From: Escherichia coli | Lineage (GTDB): Bacteria > Pseudomonadota > Gammaproteobacteria > Enterobacterales > Enterobacteriaceae | Strand: one strand, 5' to 3' | Length of the DNA stretch: 64,000 bases | Assembly (NCBI RefSeq): GCF_048403405.1 | Contig: NZ_CP183129.1 | Shown: in pieces, positions 1 through 12,769 of the stretch | Numbering within the stretch: position 1 is the first letter of the stretch | Layout of the letters: each line of letters begins with the position of its first letter | The notes under the pieces: generated by a model | Seen by the model: the letters and a program-made list of their open reading frames with translations, nothing else | Told to the model about the DNA's origin: nothing | Databases searched by the model: none | Position numbers and translations under genes: made by a program

Positions 1-3000
1 TTGCCCGTTCAGTGTCACCGTAATAGTGGTGCCCGCTGGCTGATTGCTGGTGCCGGAAATTTGCAGATCCGCGCCTTTTTCGGTGGCGTTAATTATGTCA
101 TCGGTAGCGATGGTGTTAATGCCAATGGTTGGCGCGGTAAGGTTAACGGTGACCGTGTGCGTTTCGCTGTCGCTATTACCTGCCGCATCGGTAACGGTCG
201 CCATCACGGTTTGCGGGCCGCTACCCAGCGCCGTGACATCCGCCGCCGGAACGCCGACGCTCCAGTTGCCGGAGGCATCCAGCGTCGTGGTGTAGGTTTT
301 ACTGTTTAGCGTGACGGTGACGACATCCCCCGCTTCTCCGCCAGTGCTGGAACCGGAAATCACCAGCGCCTGCCCGTGTTCGGCGGCGTTAATAATATCG
401 TCGCCCGCAATGGTGTTGATGGTAAGTACCGGAACGGTGAGATCCACCGCCAGATTATGCGTGGTGCTCGCCGGGTTGCCCGCTTTGTCATTGACCGTGG
501 CGGTCAGGGTGTGGCTGCCATCGGTCAATGCCTCAAGATCTGCCGCCGGAATATTAATACTCCAGCTACCGTCGGCCTGTACCGTTGCCTGATACGTCTG
601 CACGGTCGGGCTATTGAGCGTTATCGTAACAATCTGCCCTGCCTCGGCAGTGGTGCTGCCGCTCACCGTCACACCCGCATCGGCTTCGCTGGCGTTGACG
701 ATATTGTCGCTGGCAACGGTATTGATAATGATGGTCGGGGCACTGCTATCGACGCTGTAGTTATGCACCGCCGAGGCGCTATTGCCATTAATATTGCTGA
801 CGCTGGCCTGCGTGGAGGCGCTGCCATCGGTTAATAACGCTAAATCGGCAGCGGGAACGGTGGCACTCCAGCTACCATCGCTCGCCACGCTGGCAGTGTA
901 ATTTTTCCCGCCAAAGGTGACGGTGACCGTTTGCCCGGCTTCTACATTTGTGGTGGTGCCGGAAAGGGTTAAATCAGCGCCTTTTTCTGCGCCGTTAATC
1001 ACATCGTCCGTGGCGATAGTGTTGATGGTAATAGCCGCCGGAGTGAGATCCACCGTTACCGGATGCGTAATGCTTATCGGATTTCCGGCGCTACTTTCCC
1101 CGGACACGGCAATATTAATCGTCCCCGCAGGCCAGGCGCTAACCTGCGCCGCCGTGACGCCCACGCTCCAGCTACCATCGGCCTGCACCGCAGTGGTGTA
1201 TTCCACATTATTAATTGTGACGGTAAGCGGCGTGCCTTCAGCCAGCCCCGAGCTGCTGCCGCTGACCACCAGCGCCTGCCCGTGCTCGATGATATTGACC
1301 ACATCATCGCCTGCCACCGTATCGATCCGCAGACCGGGCAGATTGGCGTCGATGGTGATATCCCGCGTGCCGCTGCCGGTGTTGCCGTTTTGATTGGTGA
1401 CCGAGGCGCTCACCGTTAAATCGCCATTACCCAGCGCCTGAATATCTGCCGCCGGAACGCTCACGCTCCAGGTGAGATTGCTGCCCACCGTCGCCGTATA
1501 AGTATTACCGCCCAACGTAATAGTTACCGTGTCGCCATCTTCCGCTCCAGTAACCTGCCCGCTGATGGTTTGCGCGACGCCCGCTTCGGCGGCGTTAATA
1601 ATATCGTCGGTTGCCACCGGGTTAATGGTCACGCCGGGCAGCGCGCTGTCAACCAGCACGTTATGGCTGGCGGTGTTGCTGTTGCCGATACTGCTGGTTA
1701 CCGCCGCCGTTACCGTGTAGTTGGCCTGGCCCAGTGCGGTTACCGCCGATGCCGGAACGGTGACGCTCCAGTTGCCGGAGGCGTCGGTCGTGGTGGTGTA
1801 ATTTTGCCCGTTCAGCGTCACGGTGATGGCGGTATTAACAGGCTGATCGCTGGTGCCGGTAATCTGGACATCGGTTCCTTTTTCGCTGGCGTTAATCACA
1901 TCATCGCCCGCAATGCTGTTAATGCCGATAAGGGGCGCTGCGGTATTGACCGTGACGGTCAATGACTGGCTGCCGCTGTTTCCTGCGCGGTCGGTTACCG
2001 AGACGCTGACAGGATAACTGCCGTCCACCAGTCCGCTGACAACGGAAGCCGGAACACCCAGACTCCAGTTGCCGGAACCATCCACCACCGTGGTGTAATC
2101 GGAATTATTTAACGTAACGGTGACAATATCGCCCGCCTGCGCGCCAGTAACCGTGCCACTGATGATTTGCGCCTGGGTGTGTTCCGGCGTGTTGATGACG
2201 TTATCGGTCGCCACCGGATTAATGGTCACCACCGGAGGCGTGGCATCGACCAGCGCCACCCGTGAAACGCTGGTCGGGTTACCGGCGACATCGTTCACGC
2301 TGGCGGTGACCGTGGCGTTGCCGTCAGCCAGTGCGTCAACATTGGCGGCGGGAACGGTCACGCTCCAGGTGCCGTCGGACTGCACGATGCCCTGATAGGT
2401 TTGCCCATTCAACGTAACGGTCACCGTCTGCCCCGGCTGAGCGTCGGTGGTGCCGGTGATGGGCAAATCCTGCCCGCTTTCGGCGGCGTTAATGATGTTA
2501 TCAGCGGTCAGTGGATCGATGCTCAACGCCGGGGCCTGGCTGTCGACGGTAATGGTGCGGGAGGTGTTGCCGGTATTGCCGCTGAGATCCGTCACAGAAG
2601 CGGTAATCGCCACCGCGCCGTCAGGCAGATTTCCCATCGCGGCGGCAGGTACCGTCAGACTCCAGGAGCCATCAGCCTGCACGGTAGTGGTAAAACTCTG
2701 TCCAGCCAGGGTTACTGTGACGGTTTGTCCTGTCTCGGCCTGTTGAGTGCTACCGGTAAGGGTCAGTGGCGCACCTTTTTCTGCGCCACTGATAATGTCA
2801 TCGCCGGAGACGGTGTTAATGGTGATCAACGGAGAAACACCGACCAGCGTGATTGCTCGAGACGCCGCGCCAGTATTTCCTGCAGCATCTGTCACGGTGA
2901 CGAAAATCGTATTGGCTCCGCGATCCAGCGTGCGGGTTACCGCCGGGTCCAGCGCCACATTCCAGCTGCCATCTGCCAGCACGATGCCCGTCAGGACATG

Positions 3001-3740
3001 AGTGCCCAATTTCACCGTTACCGTATCGCCAGGAGAAGCACCGCTGACTTGTCCGGAGATGATCTGCGCGACGGCCTGCTCGGCATTATTAAGAATATCG
3101 TCGCCCGCCACGGTGTTAACGCTGACCACGGGTGCTGAGGTGTCTACCGTGAAATTCGCGCTGTGGCTGGTGGTGTTTCCTGCCCGATCGCTGACACTGG
3201 CATTGACAGCATAATTACCCTCCGCCAGTGCCTGGACTTCCGTGGCAGGCAGCGTCACTTGCCAGGTTCCGTCGCTACCGACGGTTGCTGTATGGCTTTT
3301 CCCGTTGACGGTCAGTGTTACGGTTTGCCCCGCTTCTGCATTCGACGTGCCGCTCAGTACCAGCGCGACGTTATGTTCCGCAGCACTGATGATGTTGTCC
3401 TGAGCGATGGTGTTGATGGCAAGCGTTGGCGGTTGGGTATCGACCGTTAGCAGCTGCGCGCCGGTGACCGTATTGCCTGTGGCGTCTTTCCCACTGACCA
3501 GCACCGCCTGATTCCCTTCGCCTAACGCCTGTGCATCGGCGGTCGGCACCTGCACGCTCCAGGCACCGTTAGCGCCTACGCTGGTGGTGTAGGTTTTGCC
3601 GTTTAGCGTAACGGTGAGTTCTGTTCCCTGCGCCAGATGGCTACTGGTGCCAGAAAGCGTAAACCCGGCGGCCTGTTCGCTGGCGTTAATAATGTTATCG
3701 CCTGCGGTGGTGGCAACCTGCACGCTGGCCTGACTATTGT
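1..3740 (-). repeat. Tandem array of ~300-bp coding repeats (Ig-like domains) inside the adhesin gene; repeats diverged (~40-60% aa identity by eye)
   Basis: Recurring ~100-aa motif in the hand translation; array start approximate. Confidence 0.7.
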
Positions 3741-4548
3741 CGATGGTTAACGTTATCGAACCGGCGTCAGTGATGGTACTGCCGACAATTTGCACCACTG
3801 ACCAGGTATGTTCACCTGCACTTTGCGTGGGTAACGAGACACTCCAGTGACCGTTGTTGTCTACCTGAGTACTGGCAATAGTATTGCCGTTACTGTCTTT
3901 AATCTGAATAGTCGCCCCCGCCTGCCCGCTGCCGCTAAAGGTTGGCGTGGTGTCATCGGTGATGTCATTGGTGGCGAGAATGCCGCGCTGATCGCCCTGA
4001 TTATCGGTAACTAAGAATGATGGTGTGGCGTTGCCAGGCTCAGCGGGTGGCGTAGGGTTATTAATCACTTCCGTTTTCGAGTCGCCATCACCACCGCTTG
4101 CCAGCAGTGCACCAAGCGCACCACCACCTACCGCCGCCCCCGCCAGCCAACCCCACGGGAAGGCGCTGGTCTGAGCAACGGTATCAAGAAATGGCGCAAT
4201 GCTTTCAATCGCGGTGGTCTGGGCAGTCAGTTCTACGGGGGCTAATCCACCCGCAGCAGTATCGGCAAAGGTGACGTGGGTGAGCTGTTGTCCATCGGCA
4301 AACACCAGTTCCGATTGTTCAGCGGTATTCGCCGCTTGCAGGAAATAACCGTTGCAACGGATCACCGTGCCGTCCTGCATATAGATCAGCAGGTCATTTC
4401 CTTCACGGACGTAACGCGAAACGGCAGAGGCCTGAGCATGAACCTGCACCACGGAAGGCTCATAAATAACAACCGTGACGTCGCCAGGATTAATCAGCGT
4501 TTGTTTGACGGATGTTTTACGCGAAATAACATCAATAATCAGGCTCAT
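1..4548 (-). CDS. Giant surface adhesin / type I secretion substrate, N-terminal ~1515 codons (3' end beyond window start); BapA-like N-terminal domain followed by tandem Ig-like domains
   Basis: Minus-strand frame open from ATG at 4546-4548 (AGGAAT RBS 6 nt upstream) to position 1 with no stop. Hand translation: MSLIIDVISRKTSVKQTLINPGDVTVVIYEP..., then 13 or more ~100-aa repeats (TINTIAGDDIINAAE..ISGTS..GQTVTVTLNG.TYTATV.ADGSWSV.VPAAD..AL.DG..TV.ASVTD.AGN). Plus-strand track ORFs here are antisense artefacts. Confidence 0.85.
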   Translation of the reverse strand, partial: MSLIIDVISRKTSVKQTLINPGDVTVVIYEPSVVQVHAQASAVSRYVREGNDLLIYMQDGTVIRCNGYFLQAANTAEQSELVFADGQQLTHVTFADTAAGGLAPVELTAQTTAIESIAPFLDTVAQTSAFPWGWLAGAAVGGGALGALLASGGDGDSKTEVINNPTPPAEPGNATPSFLVTDNQGDQRGILATNDITDDTTPTFSGSGQAGATIQIKDSNGNTIASTQVDNNGHWSVSLPTQSAGEHTWSVVQIVGSTITDAGSITLTIDNSQASVQVATTAGDNIINASEQAAGFTLSGTSSHLAQGTELTVTLNGKTYTTSVGANGAWSVQVPTADAQALGEGNQAVLVSGKDATGNTVTGAQLLTVDTQPPTLAINTIAQDNIISAAEHNVALVLSGTSNAEAGQTVTLTVNGKSHTATVGSDGTWQVTLPATEVQALAEGNYAVNASVSDRAGNTTSHSANFTVDTSAPVVSVNTVAGDDILNNAEQAVAQIISGQVSGASPGDTVTVKLGTHVLTGIVLADGSWNVALDPAVTRTLDRGANTIFVTVTDAAGNTGAASRAITLVGVSPLITINTVSGDDIISGAEKGAPLTLTGSTQQAETGQTVTVTLAGQSFTTTVQADGSWSLTVPAAAMGNLPDGAVAITASVTDLSGNTGNTSRTITVDSQAPALSIDPLTADNIINAAESGQDLPITGTTDAQPGQTVTVTLNGQTYQGIVQSDGTWSVTVPAANVDALADGNATVTASVNDVAGNPTSVSRVALVDATPPVVTINPVATDNVINTPEHTQAQIISGTVTGAQAGDIVTVTLNNSDYTTVVDGSGNWSLGVPASVVSGLVDGSYPVSVSVTDRAGNSGSQSLTVTVNTAAPLIGINSIAGDDVINASEKGTDVQITGTSDQPVNTAITVTLNGQNYTTTTDASGNWSVTVPASAVTALGQANYTVTAAVTSSIGNSNTASHNVLVDSALPGVTINPVATDDIINAAEAGVAQTISGQVTGAEDGDTVTITLGGNTYTATVGSNLTWSVSVPAADIQALGNGDLTVSASVTNQNGNTGSGTRDITIDANLPGLRIDTVAGDDVVNIIEHGQALVVSGSSSGLAEGTPLTVTINNVEYTTAVQADGSWSVGVTAAQVSAWPAGTINIAVSGESSAGNPISITHPVTVDLTPAAITINTIATDDVINGAEKGADLTLSGTTTNVEAGQTVTVTFGGKNYTASVASDGSWSATVPAADLALLTDGSASTQASVSNINGNSASAVHNYSVDSSAPTIIINTVASDNIVNASEADAGVTVSGSTTAEAGQIVTITLNSPTVQTYQATVQADGSWSINIPAADLEALTDGSHTLTATVNDKAGNPASTTHNLAVDLTVPVLTINTIAGDDIINAAEHGQALVISGSSTGGEAGDVVTVTLNSKTYTTTLDASGNWSVGVPAADVTALGSGPQTVMATVTDAAGNSDSETHTVTVNLTAPTIGINTIATDDIINATEKGADLQISGTSNQPAGTTITVTLNGQ

Positions 4549-4656
4549 AATGGCATTCCTGATAAATGGCGCATATCCTTAGCGAGTCCATTTATCTAAA
4601 TAAGACAAAGGTAATCACTTAACAACGAGGCATACCTGATATTAATAATGGCAGGA

Positions 4657-6012
4657 TTATTTCAAGTCGGGTAAGTCGTTGTATAAGCCCTGTTTAATTC
4701 CCGCTAATGGAATAAGGTTATTCACCGCAGCGGCATAATTTACGGCGGCGACCCAGCCATCATAATTGGCATTTATTTCAGCCGATTGCGCCTGAAAGAC
4801 ATCTTGCTCGACGGTTAATAGATCATTCAGACTGCGTTTGCCCAATTTATATTCATTTTGGTACACATCTCGCGTTTTGTGCGCACTTTCGGATTGTGCT
4901 AAACCGGCTTCTTCGCGACCCCGTGCGCCTGTCCAGTTGGCATATGCCACAGACGCTCGTTGCAGCACATCCAGTTTTGCCTGTTCGACCTGCGAGGCAG
5001 AGATTTTTTGTTGCCCTTCGGCCTGTTGCACCTGGGCAGAAACCGCGCCGCCCTGATACAGCGGCGCGTTAACGTTCAGTTGTAGCTGATCATCCCAATA
5101 CGAGCGGTCGCTGGTCTGGTAGCGCGTTTTGCCCCCCTGAATACTCAGCGTTGGCCAGTATTGCGCTTTCGTTTTTTCCACGCCGTACTGTGCTGACTGG
5201 CGTAAGTTTTCTGCCGCCAGCACCAGCGGGATGGACTGGTAATCAATATTTTTCAGCGATACCGGCTGCTCGGCTAATTCAGCAGGTGGCGCGGCTATCG
5301 CCTCCGGCTGTACGCCAGTGAGCACCGCCAGTTGCGCTTTGGCGCTTGCCATCTGCGCCTGATATTGCTCCAGCGTTGAGCGCATTCCGGCAATGCGCGT
5401 CTGGGCCTGTAATTCATCCGACGACGAGTTCAGGCCAGCGTTAGCACGCAATGCTGCCATGTTGTAGACGTTTTCCAGCGAGTGAATATTGCGTTGAGCC
5501 GCATAGCACAAAGCCTGATAACGACTGACTTCCATATAGGCAGTTGCCGTTTTCTCTGCAACATCGGTTAATGTTGCCATCAATTTAAAGCGGTAGCTGT
5601 CACGGGCGGCAGTTTGCAGTTTGATATCGTTGTTAGTTTTACCAAAGTCATACACCAGCTGTGTCAGGGTTATGCCATACGAAACGTTGTTATCAAGCCT
5701 GCCACTGGAGTCCGTTTGTCGGGACGGTCCCGCATTGCCGGTTAATCCAACGTGCGGATACCAGGCACTTTTGGCTTCATCAATTTGCGCTTCGCCAATA
5801 CCTATCTGCGCCGCCTGTTGAGTGACGTCGGGATTTCGCGCAAAGGCGCGTAATATACTTTCCTGTAAAGATAATTGGGCAACTGGCGTTACCGCTGGGG
5901 CATTCGCCCATTGTGGCAGCGGTGCAGCAATTGCAGCTTCTCCCATCACCATAAAACTTATTAAAAAAATAAACCCATTATTTTTACGGCTTTTAAACTG
6001 GAATCGCGCCAT
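4657..6012 (-). CDS. TolC-family outer-membrane efflux/secretion protein, 451 aa, with N-terminal signal peptide; likely the outer-membrane component for the adjacent adhesin
   Basis: Complete ORF; basic n-region then hydrophobic FIFLISFMVMG and AIA-A signal-peptidase-like site; TolC/OprM-like composition; 108 bp upstream of the adhesin start on the same strand. Confidence 0.75.
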   Translation of the reverse strand: MARFQFKSRKNNGFIFLISFMVMGEAAIAAPLPQWANAPAVTPVAQLSLQESILRAFARNPDVTQQAAQIGIGEAQIDEAKSAWYPHVGLTGNAGPSRQTDSSGRLDNNVSYGITLTQLVYDFGKTNNDIKLQTAARDSYRFKLMATLTDVAEKTATAYMEVSRYQALCYAAQRNIHSLENVYNMAALRANAGLNSSSDELQAQTRIAGMRSTLEQYQAQMASAKAQLAVLTGVQPEAIAAPPAELAEQPVSLKNIDYQSIPLVLAAENLRQSAQYGVEKTKAQYWPTLSIQGGKTRYQTSDRSYWDDQLQLNVNAPLYQGGAVSAQVQQAEGQQKISASQVEQAKLDVLQRASVAYANWTGARGREEAGLAQSESAHKTRDVYQNEYKLGKRSLNDLLTVEQDVFQAQSAEINANYDGWVAAVNYAAAVNNLIPLAGIKQGLYNDLPDLK

Positions 6013-6300
6013 AGATAAGTCACTTCCTTCCAGGTCATTATTTTAACTGGTTTTTATAACCAGTCTCATTTTATTAAGAAGGGTAATAACTTGTGCATCT
6101 CTTTTGTCGATCATTGATATTGGCAAAGAAATGCAGCTAAAAAGCTTATACGTTATTTATTTAGAATACACTACGACTTTTAGATTACCATCATACACAT
6201 TAAGAATAATCCACGGTAATAAGTGATTAGCATCACAGATTTATCGCGTATATATCATTTTTTTGTGACTTATTTATTAAAGGAATAAGAAAGGTAATTT

Positions 6301-6338
6301 GAATTAAAGACAAAGGCGCAGTACAGGCTGTACTGCGC
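6301..6338 (-). terminator. Intrinsic terminator downstream of ybaT
   Basis: Inverted repeat GCGCAGTACAG/CTGTACTGCGC at 6316-6338, 12 nt past the ybaT stop, followed on the minus strand by a U-rich tract. Confidence 0.6.
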
Positions 6339-6349
6339 ACAGAGAGGTG

Positions 6350-7642
6350 TTATACGGTTTTATTGCGCTTCATGACCATTGCCACAATAAGGCTGAGTAA
6401 GATTGCACCAATAATCCATATCAACGCACGGCTGCCCTGGGACCACAGGCTGTAGATAAAGCCAACGATCACCAACAACATCACCAACGTACCAACGATA
6501 AGAATCGGCAACGAGGCGTGAATATCATGACGCAGGCGGATCGCCACCACAAACACCGCCAGATAGCAGATCAAAAAGGTGGCGCTGGCAACGCTGGCGA
6601 GTGAGCCTAAATTCAGCGCCGCCGTCATCAGCATAATCAGCACCACGACAATGATGTTGCCCCAGGTACTCTGCCGCCACAGGGATTTATTCATTAGCTT
6701 CGGCAGTTCGCGTTCGCTGCCCATGTTGTCCATGATGTTAAACACGGCGAACAGGTTCGCGTTGATGGCTGAAGCCGTCGCCAGTAAAGCGCCGATGACG
6801 ACGATCACATAACCCACATGCCCGAGCAGCGGAGAAGCTGCCTGCGCTACGGCGGTATCGGCATATTTTTCTAACTCTAATGCCGATACATCGCTAAGCA
6901 AAACCAGCGCCAGCGAGATATAAAGCAACGTGGTAACGCCAATCGCCACCAGAAACGCCCGTGGCATAATGACCTGCGGATCTTTCACTTTATCCGCCGC
7001 GTTCGCCATCATGCCAAAGCCCGCATAGGCAAGGAAGGTTATCCCGATACAGGAGAAGAACGCACCGGAGCTGGGGGGCGCAGAGACGGAAATATGCGCC
7101 GGTTGCAGCGACCAGACACCTGCAATGATCAGCAATAACAGGATCATCATTTTAATGCCGACGAGGATCACTTCCAGCCGCCCTACCGCATGGTTGCTTA
7201 AGGAGTTGAAAAGCGTCATCACCGCAATGATCCCCAACGCGTAGAGCAATATAAGGTGCTCCTCCTGACTGCCTTCATGCAAAAACTGCACGGCATAAGC
7301 GCCAAAAGCACGGGCGACCATGGCGATGCTCACCGCCAGCGTCAACAGGTACAATAACGAGAGTGCCAGCGAAAAGACGCCGTTGCCTAATCCGCGACGA
7401 AAGAAGTCGATAATACCGCCATTGCTGGGATAGCTCGCCCCTAGGCGCGCATAGGCATAACCGGAAAACATCGCCACAATACCGCCAAAAGCAAAGGCGA
7501 CCCAGGTCGAGGCTTCCATTAGCAACGCAGCCTGCCCCAGCAGCGCGAAGATCCCCGCCCCCACCATTGCCCCAATACCGATGGAAACGACGTTCCATAG
7601 ACCGAGGGGTTTGTTATCGTTATTACCTTCCGTGTTCATCAT
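6350..7642 (-). CDS. ybaT: APC-family amino acid transporter YbaT (430 aa)
   Basis: Complete ORF; polytopic membrane protein sequence; 2 nt downstream of glsA. Confidence 0.9.
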   Translation of the reverse strand: MMNTEGNNDNKPLGLWNVVSIGIGAMVGAGIFALLGQAALLMEASTWVAFAFGGIVAMFSGYAYARLGASYPSNGGIIDFFRRGLGNGVFSLALSLLYLLTLAVSIAMVARAFGAYAVQFLHEGSQEEHLILLYALGIIAVMTLFNSLSNHAVGRLEVILVGIKMMILLLLIIAGVWSLQPAHISVSAPPSSGAFFSCIGITFLAYAGFGMMANAADKVKDPQVIMPRAFLVAIGVTTLLYISLALVLLSDVSALELEKYADTAVAQAASPLLGHVGYVIVVIGALLATASAINANLFAVFNIMDNMGSERELPKLMNKSLWRQSTWGNIIVVVLIMLMTAALNLGSLASVASATFLICYLAVFVVAIRLRHDIHASLPILIVGTLVMLLVIVGFIYSLWSQGSRALIWIIGAILLSLIVAMVMKRNKTV

Positions 7643-7644
7643 GA

Positions 7645-8577
7645 TCAGCCCTTAAACACGTTATAGCCGAGTTGCTTAGCGACCGATGCCACCATTTTTT
7701 GACCGCGAACACTGTTACCTTCTTCGTCCAGCGGTGGTGAGAACGCGGCAATTCCCATCACGCCAGGGACGACCGCCAGAATACCGCCACCTACACCGCT
7801 TTTGCCCGGTAAACCAACGCGATACGCCCAGTCACCGGAGCGACCATACAGCCCTTCCATCATCATTTCAGCCAGAATGTACGGCACGTTGTCGGCCTGA
7901 AGAACGCGTTTATGCGTCAGCGGATTCACACCCCCCGCCGCCAGCGTCGCGCCAAGCGTTGCCAGTTCAACAGTATTGATGAGCGTGGAGCACTGACGGG
8001 TGTACACGTCACAGGCTTCCATTGCATCACAATAGAGATATCCGGCGGAGTACAGCAGCCAGGCAATGGCCCGGTTATGGAAGTTGGTTGTTTGTTCCGA
8101 CTGGTTTACTTCGTCAGAGAGCGCTACCTGCTCACCAGCCAGTTGTTGTTGGATATGTAAAATTCGCTGCCAGCGTTGTTCGGCATTTTCAGCGTTAATC
8201 AGGCTGGTGGTGGCAATAGCGCCAGCATTTACCAGTGGCGACAGCGGTTTACCGCCATGCAACTCTAAGGCGATAACTGAGTTAAAGGGCAATCCGGTCG
8301 GGTCAGCGCCAATTTTGTCCTGTACCGCCTGCGGGCCGACATCTTCTAACGCAAGGGCTAACGTACAGACTTTCGAGATGGATTCCAGCGCAAAGCGGTA
8401 ATCACTATCACCCGCGCGATAGATGTTGCCATCGCAGGTCACAATAGCCACTGCTGCCAGTTGACCAGGTACATTCGCCAGAAAGGGAATGTAGTCGGCA
8501 TTTTGTCCGCCGTTAAGTGAGTGAAATTGGGTGTAAGCCTGATCCACTGCCTGCTGTAATTTGTTTGCATCTAACAT
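7645..8577 (-). CDS. glsA: Glutaminase 1 (310 aa)
   Basis: Complete ORF; sequence recognisable as YbaS/GlsA glutaminase; forms glsA-ybaT operon. Confidence 0.92.
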   Translation of the reverse strand: MLDANKLQQAVDQAYTQFHSLNGGQNADYIPFLANVPGQLAAVAIVTCDGNIYRAGDSDYRFALESISKVCTLALALEDVGPQAVQDKIGADPTGLPFNSVIALELHGGKPLSPLVNAGAIATTSLINAENAEQRWQRILHIQQQLAGEQVALSDEVNQSEQTTNFHNRAIAWLLYSAGYLYCDAMEACDVYTRQCSTLINTVELATLGATLAAGGVNPLTHKRVLQADNVPYILAEMMMEGLYGRSGDWAYRVGLPGKSGVGGGILAVVPGVMGIAAFSPPLDEEGNSVRGQKMVASVAKQLGYNVFKG

Positions 8578-8768
8578 CTTTTGTTAACTCCTTTTTATAG
8601 ATGCGGGAGGTAATTCCTCACCCCGGTGCCGATTTTCAGGCATCCTGATTTAACTTAGCACCCGCAACTTAACTACAGGAAAACAAAGAGATAAATGTCT
8701 AATCCTGATGCAAATCGAGCCGATTTTTTAATCTTTACGGACTTTTACCCGCCTGGTTTATTAATTTC

Positions 8769-8799
8769 TTGACCTTCCCCTTGCTGGAAGGTTTAACCT
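8769..8799 (+). promoter_or_regulatory. copA promoter with CueR (MerR-type) operator: -35 TTGACC, 19-bp spacer containing dyad CCTTCC-N7-GGAAGG
   Basis: TTGACCTTCCCCTTGCTGGAAGGTTTAACCT read directly 41-71 nt upstream of the copA ATG. Confidence 0.8.
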
Positions 8800-8839
8800 T
8801 TATCACAGCCAGTCAAAACTGTCTTAAAAGGAGTGTTTT

Positions 8840-9051
8840 ATGTCACAAACTATCGACCTGACCCTGGACGGCCTGTCCTGCGGTCACTGCGTTAAACGCG
8901 TGAAAGAAAGTCTCGAACAGCGCCCGGATGTTGAGCAGGCGGATGTGTCTGTCACTGAAGCGCACGTTACCGGGACTGCCAGTGCAGAACAGCTGATCGA
9001 AACCATCAAACAAGCGGGTTATGACGCATCTGTAAGCCACCCAAAGGCTAA
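8840..9051 (+). CDS. copA: CopA(Z) copper chaperone, 70 aa, produced by programmed -1 ribosomal frameshift within copA
   Basis: Slippery heptamer C-CCA-AAG at 9040-9046 (codons 68-69); the -1 frame reads CCC AAA GGC TAA, ending ...SHPKG. Confidence 0.75.
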
Positions 9052-11344
9052 ACCGCTGGCGGAGTCATCAATCCCGTCGGAAGCACTGACAGCGGTTTCT
9101 GAGGCGCTTCCGGCAGCGACCGCCGATGACGATGACAGCCAGCAGTTGCTGCTGAGCGGCATGAGCTGCGCCAGCTGTGTCACCCGCGTACAAAATGCGC
9201 TGCAAAGCGTACCGGGCGTCACTCAGGCACGGGTAAACCTGGCGGAGCGTACTGCGCTGGTGATGGGCAGTGCCTCCCCACAAGATTTAGTGCAGGCGGT
9301 GGAAAAAGCGGGCTACGGCGCGGAAGCGATTGAAGATGACGCTAAACGCCGCGAGCGCCAGCAAGAAACCGCCGTCGCTACGATGAAGCGCTTCCGCTGG
9401 CAGGCGATTGTCGCACTGGCGGTGGGTATCCCGGTGATGGTCTGGGGGATGATCGGCGATAACATGATGGTCACCGCCGACAACCGCAGCCTGTGGTTGG
9501 TTATCGGCCTGATAACCCTGGCGGTAATGGTTTTCGCCGGCGGGCATTTTTACCGCAGTGCATGGAAAAGCCTGCTGAACGGCGCGGCGACAATGGATAC
9601 GCTGGTGGCGCTGGGTACGGGCGTGGCGTGGCTCTATTCGATGAGCGTCAACCTGTGGCCGCAGTGGTTCCCGATGGAAGCGCGACATCTTTATTACGAA
9701 GCCAGCGCGATGATTATCGGTCTGATCAATCTCGGCCATATGCTGGAAGCGCGCGCGCGTCAGCGTTCTTCTAAGGCGCTGGAGAAATTACTCGATTTAA
9801 CCCCACCGACGGCGCGCCTGGTCACTGACGAAGGTGAAAAAAACGTGCCGCTGGCAGATGTTCAGCCAGGTATGTTACTGCGCCTGACGACCGGCGACCG
9901 TGTGCCGGTAGATGGTGAGATTACTCAAGGCGAAGCGTGGCTGGATGAAGCGATGCTGACGGGCGAACCTATCCCGCAGCAAAAAGGCGAAGGCGATAGC
10001 GTCCATGCCGGGACAGTGGTACAGGACGGCAGTGTGCTGTTTCGTGCCAGTGCGGTCGGCAGCCATACTACGCTGTCACGGATCATTCGCATGGTGCGAC
10101 AGGCCCAGAGCAGCAAGCCAGAAATCGGTCAACTGGCGGATAAAATCTCCGCCGTGTTTGTGCCGGTAGTGGTAGTCATTGCGCTGATCAGTGCGGCAAT
10201 CTGGTATTTCTTTGGTCCGGCACCGCAGATTGTCTATACCCTGGTGATTGCCACCACGGTGCTGATTATCGCCTGTCCGTGTGCGCTAGGACTGGCGACG
10301 CCGATGTCGATTATTTCGGGCGTCGGGCGGGCGGCTGAGTTTGGTGTGCTGGTGCGGGACGCCGACGCGCTGCAACGCGCCAGTACGCTCGACACCGTGG
10401 TGTTCGATAAAACCGGGACGCTGACCGAAGGGAAGCCGCAGGTTGTCGCAGTAAAAACATTTGCTGATGTTGATGAAGCGCAAGCATTGCGTCTGGCGGC
10501 GGCGCTGGAGCAAGGTTCCAGCCACCCGCTGGCACGGGCGATCCTCGATAAAGCAGGTGATATGCAGCTACCGCAGGTCAACGGTTTCCGCACATTGCGC
10601 GGGCTGGGTGTGAGCGGTGAAGCAGAAGGTCATGCGTTGTTGCTGGGTAATCAGGCGTTGTTAAATGAGCAACAGGTTGATACCAAAGCTATCGAAGCGG
10701 AGATTACTGCTCAGGCATCGCAAGGGGCAACGCCTGTGCTGCTGGCGGTTGACGGGAAAGCGGTAGCCCTGCTGGCTGTACGCGATCCGTTGCGTAGTGA
10801 TAGCGTGGCGGCGCTGCAACGCCTGCATAAAGCGGGATATCGTCTGGTGATGCTAACCGGGGATAACCCAACCACCGCCAATGCGATCGCCAAAGAAGCA
10901 GGGATTGATGAGGTGATAGCCGGGGTGCTACCGGACGGTAAAGCCGAAGCGATCAAACGTCTGCAAAGTGAAGGACGTCAGGTGGCAATGGTGGGCGACG
11001 GCATTAACGACGCGCCAGCGCTGGCTCAGGCGGATGTCGGTATTGCGATGGGTGGCGGCAGTGATGTTGCCATTGAAACCGCGGCGATTACCCTGATGCG
11101 CCATAGCCTGATGGGTGTTGCAGATGCGCTCGCGATTTCCCGCGCAACGCTGCGCAATATGAAGCAGAACCTGCTCGGCGCGTTTATCTACAACAGTATC
11201 GGTATTCCGGTCGCCGCCGGTATTTTGTGGCCGTTCACTGGAACACTGCTTAACCCGGTGGTTGCCGGAGCGGCAATGGCGCTCTCGTCGATTACCGTAG
11301 TGAGTAACGCTAACCGGTTGCTGCGGTTTAAACCGAAAGAGTGA
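8840..11344 (+). CDS. copA: Cu(I)-exporting P1B-type ATPase CopA (834 aa)
   Basis: Complete ORF; two N-terminal metal-binding motifs (GLSCGHC, GMSCASC), CPC and DKTGT motifs. Confidence 0.95.
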
Positions 11345-11435
11345 TTGGTATTTACTTAATGCGTTTGTGAGATCCAGTTCTTGTTGCGCTCCTTTTATGA
11401 GTCATGCCATATAAAGTGACTGGCGCAGGGAGCGC

Positions 11436-11467
11436 GCAGGGGGCGGCCAATCGCCGCCGCCCCCTGC
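11436..11467. repeat. Perfect 12-bp GC-rich hairpin (GCAGGGGGCGGC / GCCGCCCCCTGC, 8-nt loop) within a GC-rich non-coding segment
   Basis: Read directly; no U-tract on either side, so not a canonical terminator. Confidence 0.6.
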
Positions 11468-11772
11468 ACCCCCGGGCTCTGGCGAACAAAATCGCCGCTG
11501 CGCGGTACCCTCAGCTTATCCCTTGCGGCTACCGGGTCGGGCGCGAGGTAACATCCCTGTAAAACGCGCCCTCAGCCCACATCCATGTGGGCTGCCCCGG
11601 CCTTCAGGGAACGCCTCGGCGATTTTGACGCCACCAACACCGGTGCAGTCTTTCGTTTCAAAGCAAAAACAATTTTTCGATCATATTTAAGCTACCACTG
11701 AACAAGCCTCATAACTCCATTTGCGCCATCCCTCCCCGCGCGCTAGCATGATATTTCACAAAGGGAGGTCGT

Positions 11773-12567
11773 ATGGATCTGTTGTACCGGGTAAAAACGC
11801 TTTGGGCCGCGCTGCGCGGTAATCATTACACCTGGCCTGCTATCGATATCTCTCTTCCCGGCAATCGCCATTTTCATCTGATTGGCAGTATTCATATGGG
11901 CAGCCACGATATGGCTCCCCTGCCCACCCGTTTGCTCAAAAAGCTCAAAAACGCCGATGCGCTGATCGTCGAGGCGGATGTTTCCACCAGCGATACGCCT
12001 TTTGCTAATTTGCCTGCCTGCGAGGCGCTGGAAGAGCGCATTAGCGAGGAGCAACTCCAAAACCTGCAGCACATTAGCCAGGAGATGGGCATTTCTACCT
12101 CACTCTTTTCTACCCAACCGCTGTGGCAAATCGCGATGGTTCTTCAGGCGACGCAGGCACAAAAACTGGGGCTGCGGGCAGAATACGGTATCGATTACCA
12201 GCTATTGCAGGCGGCGAAGCAACAACATAAACCCGTGATTGAACTGGAAGGGGCTGAAAACCAGATTGCCATGTTGCTCCAGCTCCCTGACAACGGACTG
12301 GCGCTGCTGGACGATACGCTGACCCACTGGCACACCAATGCACGGTTGCTGCAACAAATGATGAGCTGGTGGCTGAATGCGCCGCCGCAAAATAATGAAA
12401 TAACGCTGCCTAATACGTTCAGTCAGTCGCTGTATGATGTGCTGATGCATCAGCGAAATCTCGCCTGGCGGGACAAATTATGCGCCATGCCGCCGGGGCG
12501 CTATGTGGTCGCAGTCGGTGCACTACACCTGTATGGAGAAGGGAATTTGCCGCAGATGTTGCGCTAA
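11773..12567 (+). CDS. ybaP: TraB-family protein YbaP (264 aa)
   Basis: Complete ORF with AGGGAGG RBS; sequence recognisable. Confidence 0.9.
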   Translation: MDLLYRVKTLWAALRGNHYTWPAIDISLPGNRHFHLIGSIHMGSHDMAPLPTRLLKKLKNADALIVEADVSTSDTPFANLPACEALEERISEEQLQNLQHISQEMGISTSLFSTQPLWQIAMVLQATQAQKLGLRAEYGIDYQLLQAAKQQHKPVIELEGAENQIAMLLQLPDNGLALLDDTLTHWHTNARLLQQMMSWWLNAPPQNNEITLPNTFSQSLYDVLMHQRNLAWRDKLCAMPPGRYVVAVGALHLYGEGNLPQMLR

Positions 12568-12649
12568 AAAAATGGCCAATATCGCTATTGGCCCGTCAAA
12601 GAGGAATTTCATATTTTTATTATTATGCCGTCACTTTAAGCGACGGTGT
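12566..12649 (-). ncRNA. chiX: ChiX (SroB/MicM) small regulatory RNA, 84 nt
   Basis: Reverse complement reads ACACCGUCGCUUAAAGUGACGGCAUAAUAAUAAAAAUAUGAAAUUCCUCUUUGACGGGCCAAUAGCGAUAUUGGCCAUUUUUUU with the CCUCUUUGACGGG seed and terminator hairpin; lies between ybaP and ybaK. Confidence 0.85.
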
Positions 12650-12769
12650 AACTCGATTGTCGCTCAATCTCACCATCCTGCCAATACTCTTAGGCAAGAT
12701 GACTCTTTTTTTGGACCGCCATCAGGCGTATGCTTGCTTCGTTTTTTTGTTTAAGGCAGGAAAATTACC

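Follow-up and report, generated by a model that had tools for sequence, protein, structure and literature searches.

Does an Escherichia coli locus that encodes a giant adhesin bring along an outer-membrane channel of its own, or does the adhesin leave the cell through the chromosomal TolC? The question is raised by a window of 64,000 nucleotides, the whole stretch of DNA analysed here, in which a TolC-like gene stands directly upstream of the adhesin gene siiEA. An earlier note on this DNA had read the arrangement as an island with a dedicated channel used in place of chromosomal tolC. The channel gene itself is already known: it carries a RefSeq annotation, a 2007 study counted it among secretion components, and genetic tests followed in 2025. 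What can be asked anew is how far its sequence, its neighbours and the published genetics of an orthologue support dedication to the adhesin, and whether other roles have to be considered.

The window is E. coli chromosome, and several complete genomes share its bases 4000-8600 with 100% identity. RefSeq gives the same coordinates (4657-6012) for the gene in these identical strains, under the label ‘TolC family outer membrane protein’. The open reading frame described in the earlier note was recovered unchanged, intact on the minus strand, with an ATG start and 451 codons; the features of the locus are collected in Table 1. Three antisense open reading frames on the plus strand (4838-5056, 5621-5821 and 5822-6046) were treated as chance occurrences, being short and overlapping a strongly supported gene. 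An Rfam search of 4300-6600 gave no RNA family match at E <= 1, and a search for an anti-phage defence role gave no PADLOC matches.

Table 1. Coordinates of the channel gene and its surroundings in the window.
Feature	Position	Strand	Evidence
siiEA, 5' 1516 codons; BapA-related giant adhesin, runs off the window edge	1..4548	-	Open frame, NF047714
Junction from tolC-like stop to siiEA start, 108 bp, 37% G+C, no terminator	4549..4656	-	Terminator scan, RNA fold
TolC-family outer-membrane channel gene, 451 aa; orthologue of Z0608/ECs0540/tolC28	4657..6012	-	ORF, profiles, AlphaFold2 model, identity, RefSeq
Predicted Sec signal peptide, codons 1-29, no lipobox	5926..6012	-	Sequence and hydropathy inspection, homologue conservation, pLDDT
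Shine-Dalgarno-like GGAAGGAAG, 10 nt before the ATG of the tolC-like gene	6023..6031	-	Read from sequence
AT-rich regulatory region, ybaT stop codon to tolC-like start	6013..6349	-	G+C, 99% O157 identity
RstA box TAATTCAAATTACC, -294 to -281 from the ATG	6293..6306	-	Exact match to O157 box
ybaT intrinsic terminator, hairpin 6316-6338 plus T-tract, 10-bp stem GCGCAGTAC...GTACTGCGC	6306..6338	-	Terminator scan

Profile searches, which had been proposed as a check on the family assignment, place the protein in the TolC family with scores far beyond chance. NCBIfam TIGR01844 (TolC family, type I secretion) matches with 414.9 bits (E = 3.8e-124; curated cut-off 225.15 bits) and aligns residues 46-445 to profile positions 2-412 of 414, and Pfam recognizes two tandem OEP repeats of PF02321 at residues 49-233 (E = 8.9e-27) and 264-430 (E = 1.6e-20). 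An AlphaFold2 model built with 20 homologues as input (pLDDT 81.9) shows the duplicated strand-strand-long-helix-long-helix arrangement of a TolC protomer, with strands at residues 87-94, 110-121, 288-299 and 304-315 and helices at 125-191, 197-232, 321-389 and 395-429. Searched against the PDB with Foldseek, this model finds TolC of E. coli, Salmonella and Klebsiella as its best matches, with TM values of 0.64-0.71, E-values of 1e-23 to 5e-25 and about 21% identity. The TolC/OEP fold is thus confirmed at the level of the predicted structure, and by analogy the protein would form a trimeric outer-membrane channel needed for substrate export.

The signal peptide ascribed to the protein is likewise present, with n, h and c regions and an A-I-A site; the peptide and its cleavage site were assigned by inspection and hydropathy alone. 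The N-terminus reads MARFQFKSRKNNGFIFLISFMVMGEAAIA, followed by APLP after the predicted cleavage. A basic n-region (RFQFKSRK) precedes the h-region GFIFLISFMVMG, whose hydrophobic core covers residues 13-24 and reaches a Kyte-Doolittle maximum of 2.55, and the A-I-A motif stands before Ala30. Among the homologues conservation sets in at about residue 29 (AAPLPxWA), so that cleavage after Ala29 fits well. In the AlphaFold2 model residues 1-38 have a pLDDT below 50. A lipobox cysteine was sought in the protein and is absent, the sole cysteine being residue 169.

How does this channel relate to the TolC that nearly every E. coli already has? The two proteins share the fold, the two OEP repeats and a Sec signal peptide devoid of lipidation, and serving as exit duct in type I secretion is common to E. 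coli TolC (b3035; PDB 1EK9) and the channel of the window. However, identity to K-12 TolC is only 25% by BLASTP, the channel is 42 residues shorter, and its gene lies within the operon of its substrate, whereas tolC is a stand-alone gene that serves many pumps. Two other assignments were tried and rejected: the protein fails the TolC equivalog model NF007002, scoring 67.5 bits where 495 are required, and it fails the NodT/OprM-type lipoprotein model TIGR01845 with 92.1 bits against 210, its signal peptide moreover having no cysteine. By these alignments chromosomal tolC and the channel gene are deep paralogues, and the latter is no recent copy. Chromosomal tolC is found in 5422 of the 5426 complete E. 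coli genomes. Together with its flanks, the channel gene occurs in 958 of the same set (~18%, about one in six), always as a single chromosomal copy with 92.8-100% nucleotide identity, and because tolC is near-universal these carriers own two TolC-family channels.

This coexistence is what speaks for a redundant channel, in which chromosomal TolC would serve the secretion system just as well and the copy at the locus would be a dispensable leftover of an ancestral operon. All carriers also have tolC, and the HlyBD system of E. coli is served by chromosomal TolC. The conservation of the gene argues against such a leftover. Between E. coli channel alleles dN/dS is 0.04-0.07, which points strongly to purifying selection, and the gene is covered to at least 80% in 958 of 958 carriers, with the TolC family label on every one of the matches listed. 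A divergent allele, that of strain E600003 (92.8% nucleotide identity), is accompanied by a siiEA flagged as frameshifted.

The downstream neighbour gives the channel a plausible substrate. The earlier description of two co-directional genes 108 bp apart is accurate: siiEA begins with an ATG at 4548, the gap spans 4549-4656, and both genes are on the minus strand. The siiEA frame is open through all 1516 codons up to the window edge and identical to the SiiEA of strain 4621. The N-terminal 230 residues match NF047714 (adhesin_SiiEA) with 509 bits, and a BapA_N domain (residues 5-69) is followed by Ca2+-stabilised Ig-like tandem repeats (Ca_tandemer). Strain 4621, a blood isolate (NZ_CP103479.1), matches window bases 1-12712 with no mismatch and departs from the window by an indel at about 12712. 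Genes of the locus beyond the window, namely those for the ABC exporter and the adaptor, were read from this strain. Its gene order is tolC-like gene, siiEA, ABC exporter and HlyD-family adaptor. There siiEA measures 20.8 kb and encodes 6925 residues; the C-terminal end of the protein carries RTX-like repeats and the type I secretion target domain TIGR03661. The LssB-type ABC exporter has 720 residues (TIGR03375, 837 bits) and the HlyD-family adaptor 391 (TIGR01843, 328 bits), and the stop codon of the adaptor gene overlaps the start codon of cueR. As predicted from these assignments, the locus is a complete four-gene type I secretion operon between ybaT and cueR.

Whether channel and adhesin are made together depends on the stretches of DNA before and between them. 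The earlier note had placed the promoter in the AT-rich region ahead of the channel gene, and this placement is supported by experiments on its counterpart in enterohaemorrhagic E. coli O157:H7: the O157 region, 99% identical to 6013-6349, is active as a promoter in a lacZ fusion and is bound by RstA. G+C falls to 32.3% in 6013-6349 compared with 52.3% for the whole window. Consensus-like sigma-70 sites are predicted at 6097-6068 and 6069-6040. The -35 and -10 elements given by Niu et al. in 2025 are BPROM predictions and correspond to about 6194-6189 and 6171-6163 in the window (PMC12758282). In O157 the lacZ activity of the upstream region responds to RstA and Ca2+, and the RstA box was mapped to -294 to -280 by EMSA, ChIP and lacZ fusions, its removal abolishing RstA binding in EMSA (PMC12758282). 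The window contains one exact match to this box where 0.02 would be expected by chance; the exact box is absent from the divergent allele of E600003. At the other end of the region the ybaT terminator separates transcription of ybaT from that of the operon, and the variable locus has its left edge there; the operon promoter must therefore fall within the AT-rich region.

Regulation beyond the promoter is shared as well. In strain EDL933 expression of Z0608, the channel gene, is 55-fold and that of Z0609, a part of the adhesin gene, 20-fold RpoS-dependent (PMC2907692), and in an rstA deletion mutant all five genes of O-island 28 go down by 3.25-4.85-fold (PMC12758282). In the junction a scan of 4549-4656 on the minus strand found no terminator-like site. 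A structured RNA was considered there and rejected, the fold being no better than that of shuffled sequences (z = 0.53); the O157 allele of the junction differs from that of the window by a 6-bp indel. The terminator-less junction, the common dependence on RpoS and rstA and the layout of terminator and promoter upstream together make co-transcription of the tolC-like gene and siiEA likely. The words ‘operon’ and ‘co-transcription’ are absent from the text of Niu et al. (PMC12758282). A literature search for ‘SiiEA’ yielded an annotation mention only, and one for ybaT, cueR and type I secretion found nothing relevant.

The strongest evidence on function comes from O157:H7. The protein of the window is identical to Z0608 at 445 of 451 residues, leaving six amino-acid substitutions, and Z0608 (ECs0540) occupies the same slot between ybaT and siiEA behind an identical RstA box. 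By this correspondence the locus of the window is O-island 28 of EHEC O157:H7. The annotation as a dedicated channel goes back to the O157 genome papers; Ogura et al. had ECs0540 among the secretion components in 2007, described as ‘CyaE-like’ (PMC2323221), and Niu et al. named Z0608 tolC28 in 2025 (PMC12758282). Deletion of tolC28 in O157 lowers adherence to Caco-2 cells, pedestal formation and colonisation of mice, and complementation restores them; mutants in hlyB28, hlyD28 and the adhesin have like defects that are also restored, and no alteration at chromosomal tolC is described for the tolC28 mutant strains (PMC12758282). A redundant channel is hard to reconcile with a defect that arises and is complemented where tolC is not described as altered, and complementation in trans argues against a polar effect of the deletion on siiEA. 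The genetics of the O157 orthologue, with adherence and colonisation as read-out, thus show a diverged paralogue whose loss chromosomal TolC does not fully make up for.

The adhesin of O157 is itself a special case. Its gene, flagged by PGAP as a pseudogene, is open except for a single in-frame stop at codon 1462, whereas the copy in the window has no stop up to codon 1516. It follows from this stop that RtxA28 and RtxB28 (Z0609 and Z0615) are the two parts of a single siiEA, of which the N-terminal one has no C-terminal secretion signal. The substrate in the O157 experiments differs from the intact siiEA that is expected in the window strain.

Comparison across genera adds a further line of support. 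Homologues with 57-69% identity to the channel protein are present in Enterobacter, Salmonella enterica and Budvicia, and in each of these three genera the homologue lies directly upstream of, and co-directional with, a gene for a giant BapA_N adhesin, with flanks that are otherwise unrelated. The JGI label of several homologues (61-62% identity) is ‘adhesin transport system outer membrane protein’. This synteny with the adhesin gene is a further point against redundancy, which we regard as very improbable. The claim that the locus uses its own channel instead of chromosomal tolC is in turn supported by the low identity to TolC, the conserved pairing, the constraint on the gene and the O157 deletion phenotype.

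The history of the locus can also be read from genomes that do not have it. K-12 is one of these, and its 124-bp spacer between ybaT and cueR keeps about 95 bp with ~90% identity to the 3' end of the HlyD-family gene. On the left side the similarity to K-12 ends within the hairpin of the ybaT terminator. The K-12-type junction occurs in 4459 genomes, which together with the 958 that have the locus account for 5417 of 5426. Niu et al. suggest a recent insertion (PMC12758282). Given the HlyD remnant and the K-12-type junction in 4459 genomes, the ‘island’ looks instead like an ancestral locus that was lost by one deletion.

Taken together, these lines favour the reading of the channel as the outer-membrane part of a type I secretion system, encoded by a four-gene operon, that exports the giant adhesin SiiEA, to which we assign a probability of about 0.88. 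Transcription would start within the 337 bp of AT-rich DNA ahead of the channel gene and would probably run on into siiEA across the 108-bp junction, which has no terminator. The channel precursor would be exported by Sec, cleaved after Ala29 and assembled in the outer membrane as a trimeric TolC-type β-barrel with an α-helical tunnel. The complex of ABC exporter and adaptor would engage the C-terminal secretion domain of SiiEA and then dock onto the channel, and SiiEA (~700 kDa) would be threaded out with its C-terminus first and fold on meeting extracellular Ca2+.

Similar solutions are found in other bacteria, which we compare here by description. The RTX-type adhesin operon of uropathogenic E. 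coli (tosRCBDAEF) has its own TolC-like protein, TosC, encoded upstream, at a different locus and for a different adhesin (TosA). In Pseudomonas fluorescens LapE, part of the LapA/LapBCE system with LapG and LapD, is also a TolC-family channel that serves a giant RTX adhesin as its dedicated exit. Likewise, SiiC of Salmonella SPI-4 (siiABCDEF) is a TolC-like channel in a type I secretion locus for a giant Ig-repeat adhesin, and siiC mutation abolishes secretion of the substrate (PMC12607715). The gene orders differ, since siiC precedes siiD in SPI-4 whereas the channel gene of the window precedes the adhesin gene, and the MotAB-like SiiA and SiiB of SPI-4 have no counterpart at the window-type locus.

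The Lap system also suggests an extension of export by the channel. LapA with LapE and the ice-binding adhesin of Marinomonas are precedents for the retention of an adhesin in a TolC-like pore, and in the same manner the BapA_N domain of SiiEA may lodge in or under the pore and tether the adhesin to the cell surface. Such an anchor would account for a co-evolved paralogue beside the adhesin gene, and it would extend the export reading, not replace it. It is consistent with the conserved pairing of channel and adhesin genes and with a BapA_N domain and a Gly/Ala-rich hydrophobic stretch (about residues 132-153) of SiiEA that are conserved in four genera. The Lap precedent does not carry over entirely: the LapE system has LapG and LapD, whereas lapG and lapD are absent from the window-type locus, and the di-alanine motif of SiiEA (TAAG, residues 97-100) is not kept in the homologues of Enterobacter, Salmonella and Budvicia. 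With neither the genes nor a conserved motif at hand, a release switch by LapG-type processing is not supported, and we hold surface anchoring as a tentative possibility that the evidence leaves somewhat short of even.

A different addition to export of SiiEA is a second job that has nothing to do with the adhesin, either as a stationary-phase duct for ABC, RND or MFS pumps or as a surface receptor. The channel gene is intact and constrained where siiEA is annotated as interrupted, by the stop at codon 1462 in O157 and by the flagged frameshift in E600003, and the 55-fold RpoS-dependent expression would fit a stationary-phase role. The interruptions are less telling than they appear, however: the O157 adhesin has just one nonsense codon and both of its pieces are reported to be needed for adherence, while the frameshift in E600003 could be an assembly error in the repeats. 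There is also no evidence for any other partner, and a second job appears quite unlikely. More broadly, that the channel does more than let SiiEA pass, be it as a surface anchor for BapA_N or as an RpoS-dependent exit duct for other exporters, we consider unlikely; if true, such a role would explain why the channel stays intact in lineages with an interrupted adhesin gene.

Read as the exit of an adhesin exporter, the channel gene of the window makes the adhesin secretion system self-contained, and this system has a part in the early adherence of EHEC in the gut. Among its carriers are isolates from the bloodstream, the strain matching the window being one of them. Strains like that of the window, in which siiEA is uninterrupted, offer a cleaner model than O157 to study the specificity of the channel and the retention of the adhesin.

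K-12-type genomes lack the T1SS locus, but upstream of cueR they retain a remnant of its HlyD-family gene, about 95 bp from the 3' end. PGAP annotates a 'hypothetical protein' across this scar.

Aligned with the 3' end of the HlyD-family gene, the scar remnant in the K-12 ybaT-cueR spacer is roughly 90% identical over its ~95 bp. The K-12-type junction occurs in 4459 complete E. coli genomes and the T1SS locus in 958, together 5417 of 5426. One common junction carrying an HlyD-family remnant argues against insertion: the 'island' looks like an ancestral locus that was removed by a single deletion.

Coordinates of the deletion scar and of further features of the locus and its surroundings
Feature	Sequence	Position
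K-12 ybaT-cueR spacer (scar)	K-12 locus (L007)	2870-2993
HlyD-family gene 3' end matching the scar	operon distal end (L002)	~11395-11500
Left breakpoint of the locus, inside the ybaT terminator	window	~6306-6338
TAAG motif, SiiEA residues 97-100	window	4249-4260
Gly/Ala-rich stretch, SiiEA residues ~132-153	window	4090-4155
copA-ybaP spacer	window	11345-11772
Adaptor stop/cueR start overlap	operon distal end (L002)	11395-11398

In O157:H7 strain TX 376-2 (L003 1-20000, the counterpart of window 1-4548 and beyond), siiEA is flagged as a pseudogene and contains one in-frame stop, at codon 1462. This single stop indicates two pieces of one gene, and by this sequence comparison RtxA28 and RtxB28 (Z0609/Z0615), the 'two RTX adhesins' of Niu et al. 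(PMC12758282), are fragments of siiEA. The window copy is uninterrupted through codon 1516, and the gene is intact (6925 aa) in blood isolate 4621, which is identical to the window over bases 1-12712.

Near its N-terminus, SiiEA carries a LapG-like TAAG di-alanine motif, which is not conserved among the homologues from Enterobacter, Salmonella and Budvicia. Conserved in the homologues are the BapA_N domain, compared in the same three genera, and a Gly/Ala-rich hydrophobic stretch.

Beyond the locus, the copA-ybaP spacer shows no relation to what O157 has in this position: O157 has ybaQ, a HigA-family antitoxin gene, together with REP-like repeats, and the window instead holds ~360 bp of other sequence, part of it a G+C-rich palindrome-like stretch. 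ybaQ is likewise missing from the genes listed for strain 4621. A small indel shifts the alignment with this strain at ~12712, and only four mismatches were found over window 27998-63998. The rest of the sequence consists of ordinary core genes of E. coli: ushA, acrRAB, hha-tomB, ffs, lon, clpXP, and dnaX, which contains its frameshift element.

Among the tolC-like alleles, that of strain E600003 diverges most, at 92.8% nucleotide identity, and its upstream region shows 16 substitutions across 337 bp. The exact RstA box is absent from this regulatory region (L009 4465-4801), so control by RstA may not extend to all carriers of the tolC-like gene. At the distal end of the operon, beyond the window, the HlyD-family adaptor gene ends within the start codon of cueR, the stop and start codons sharing the sequence ATGA. 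Given this overlap, cueR is perhaps expressed with the adhesin operon, and in locus-bearing strains this copper regulator may be, in transcription or translation, the operon's last gene.
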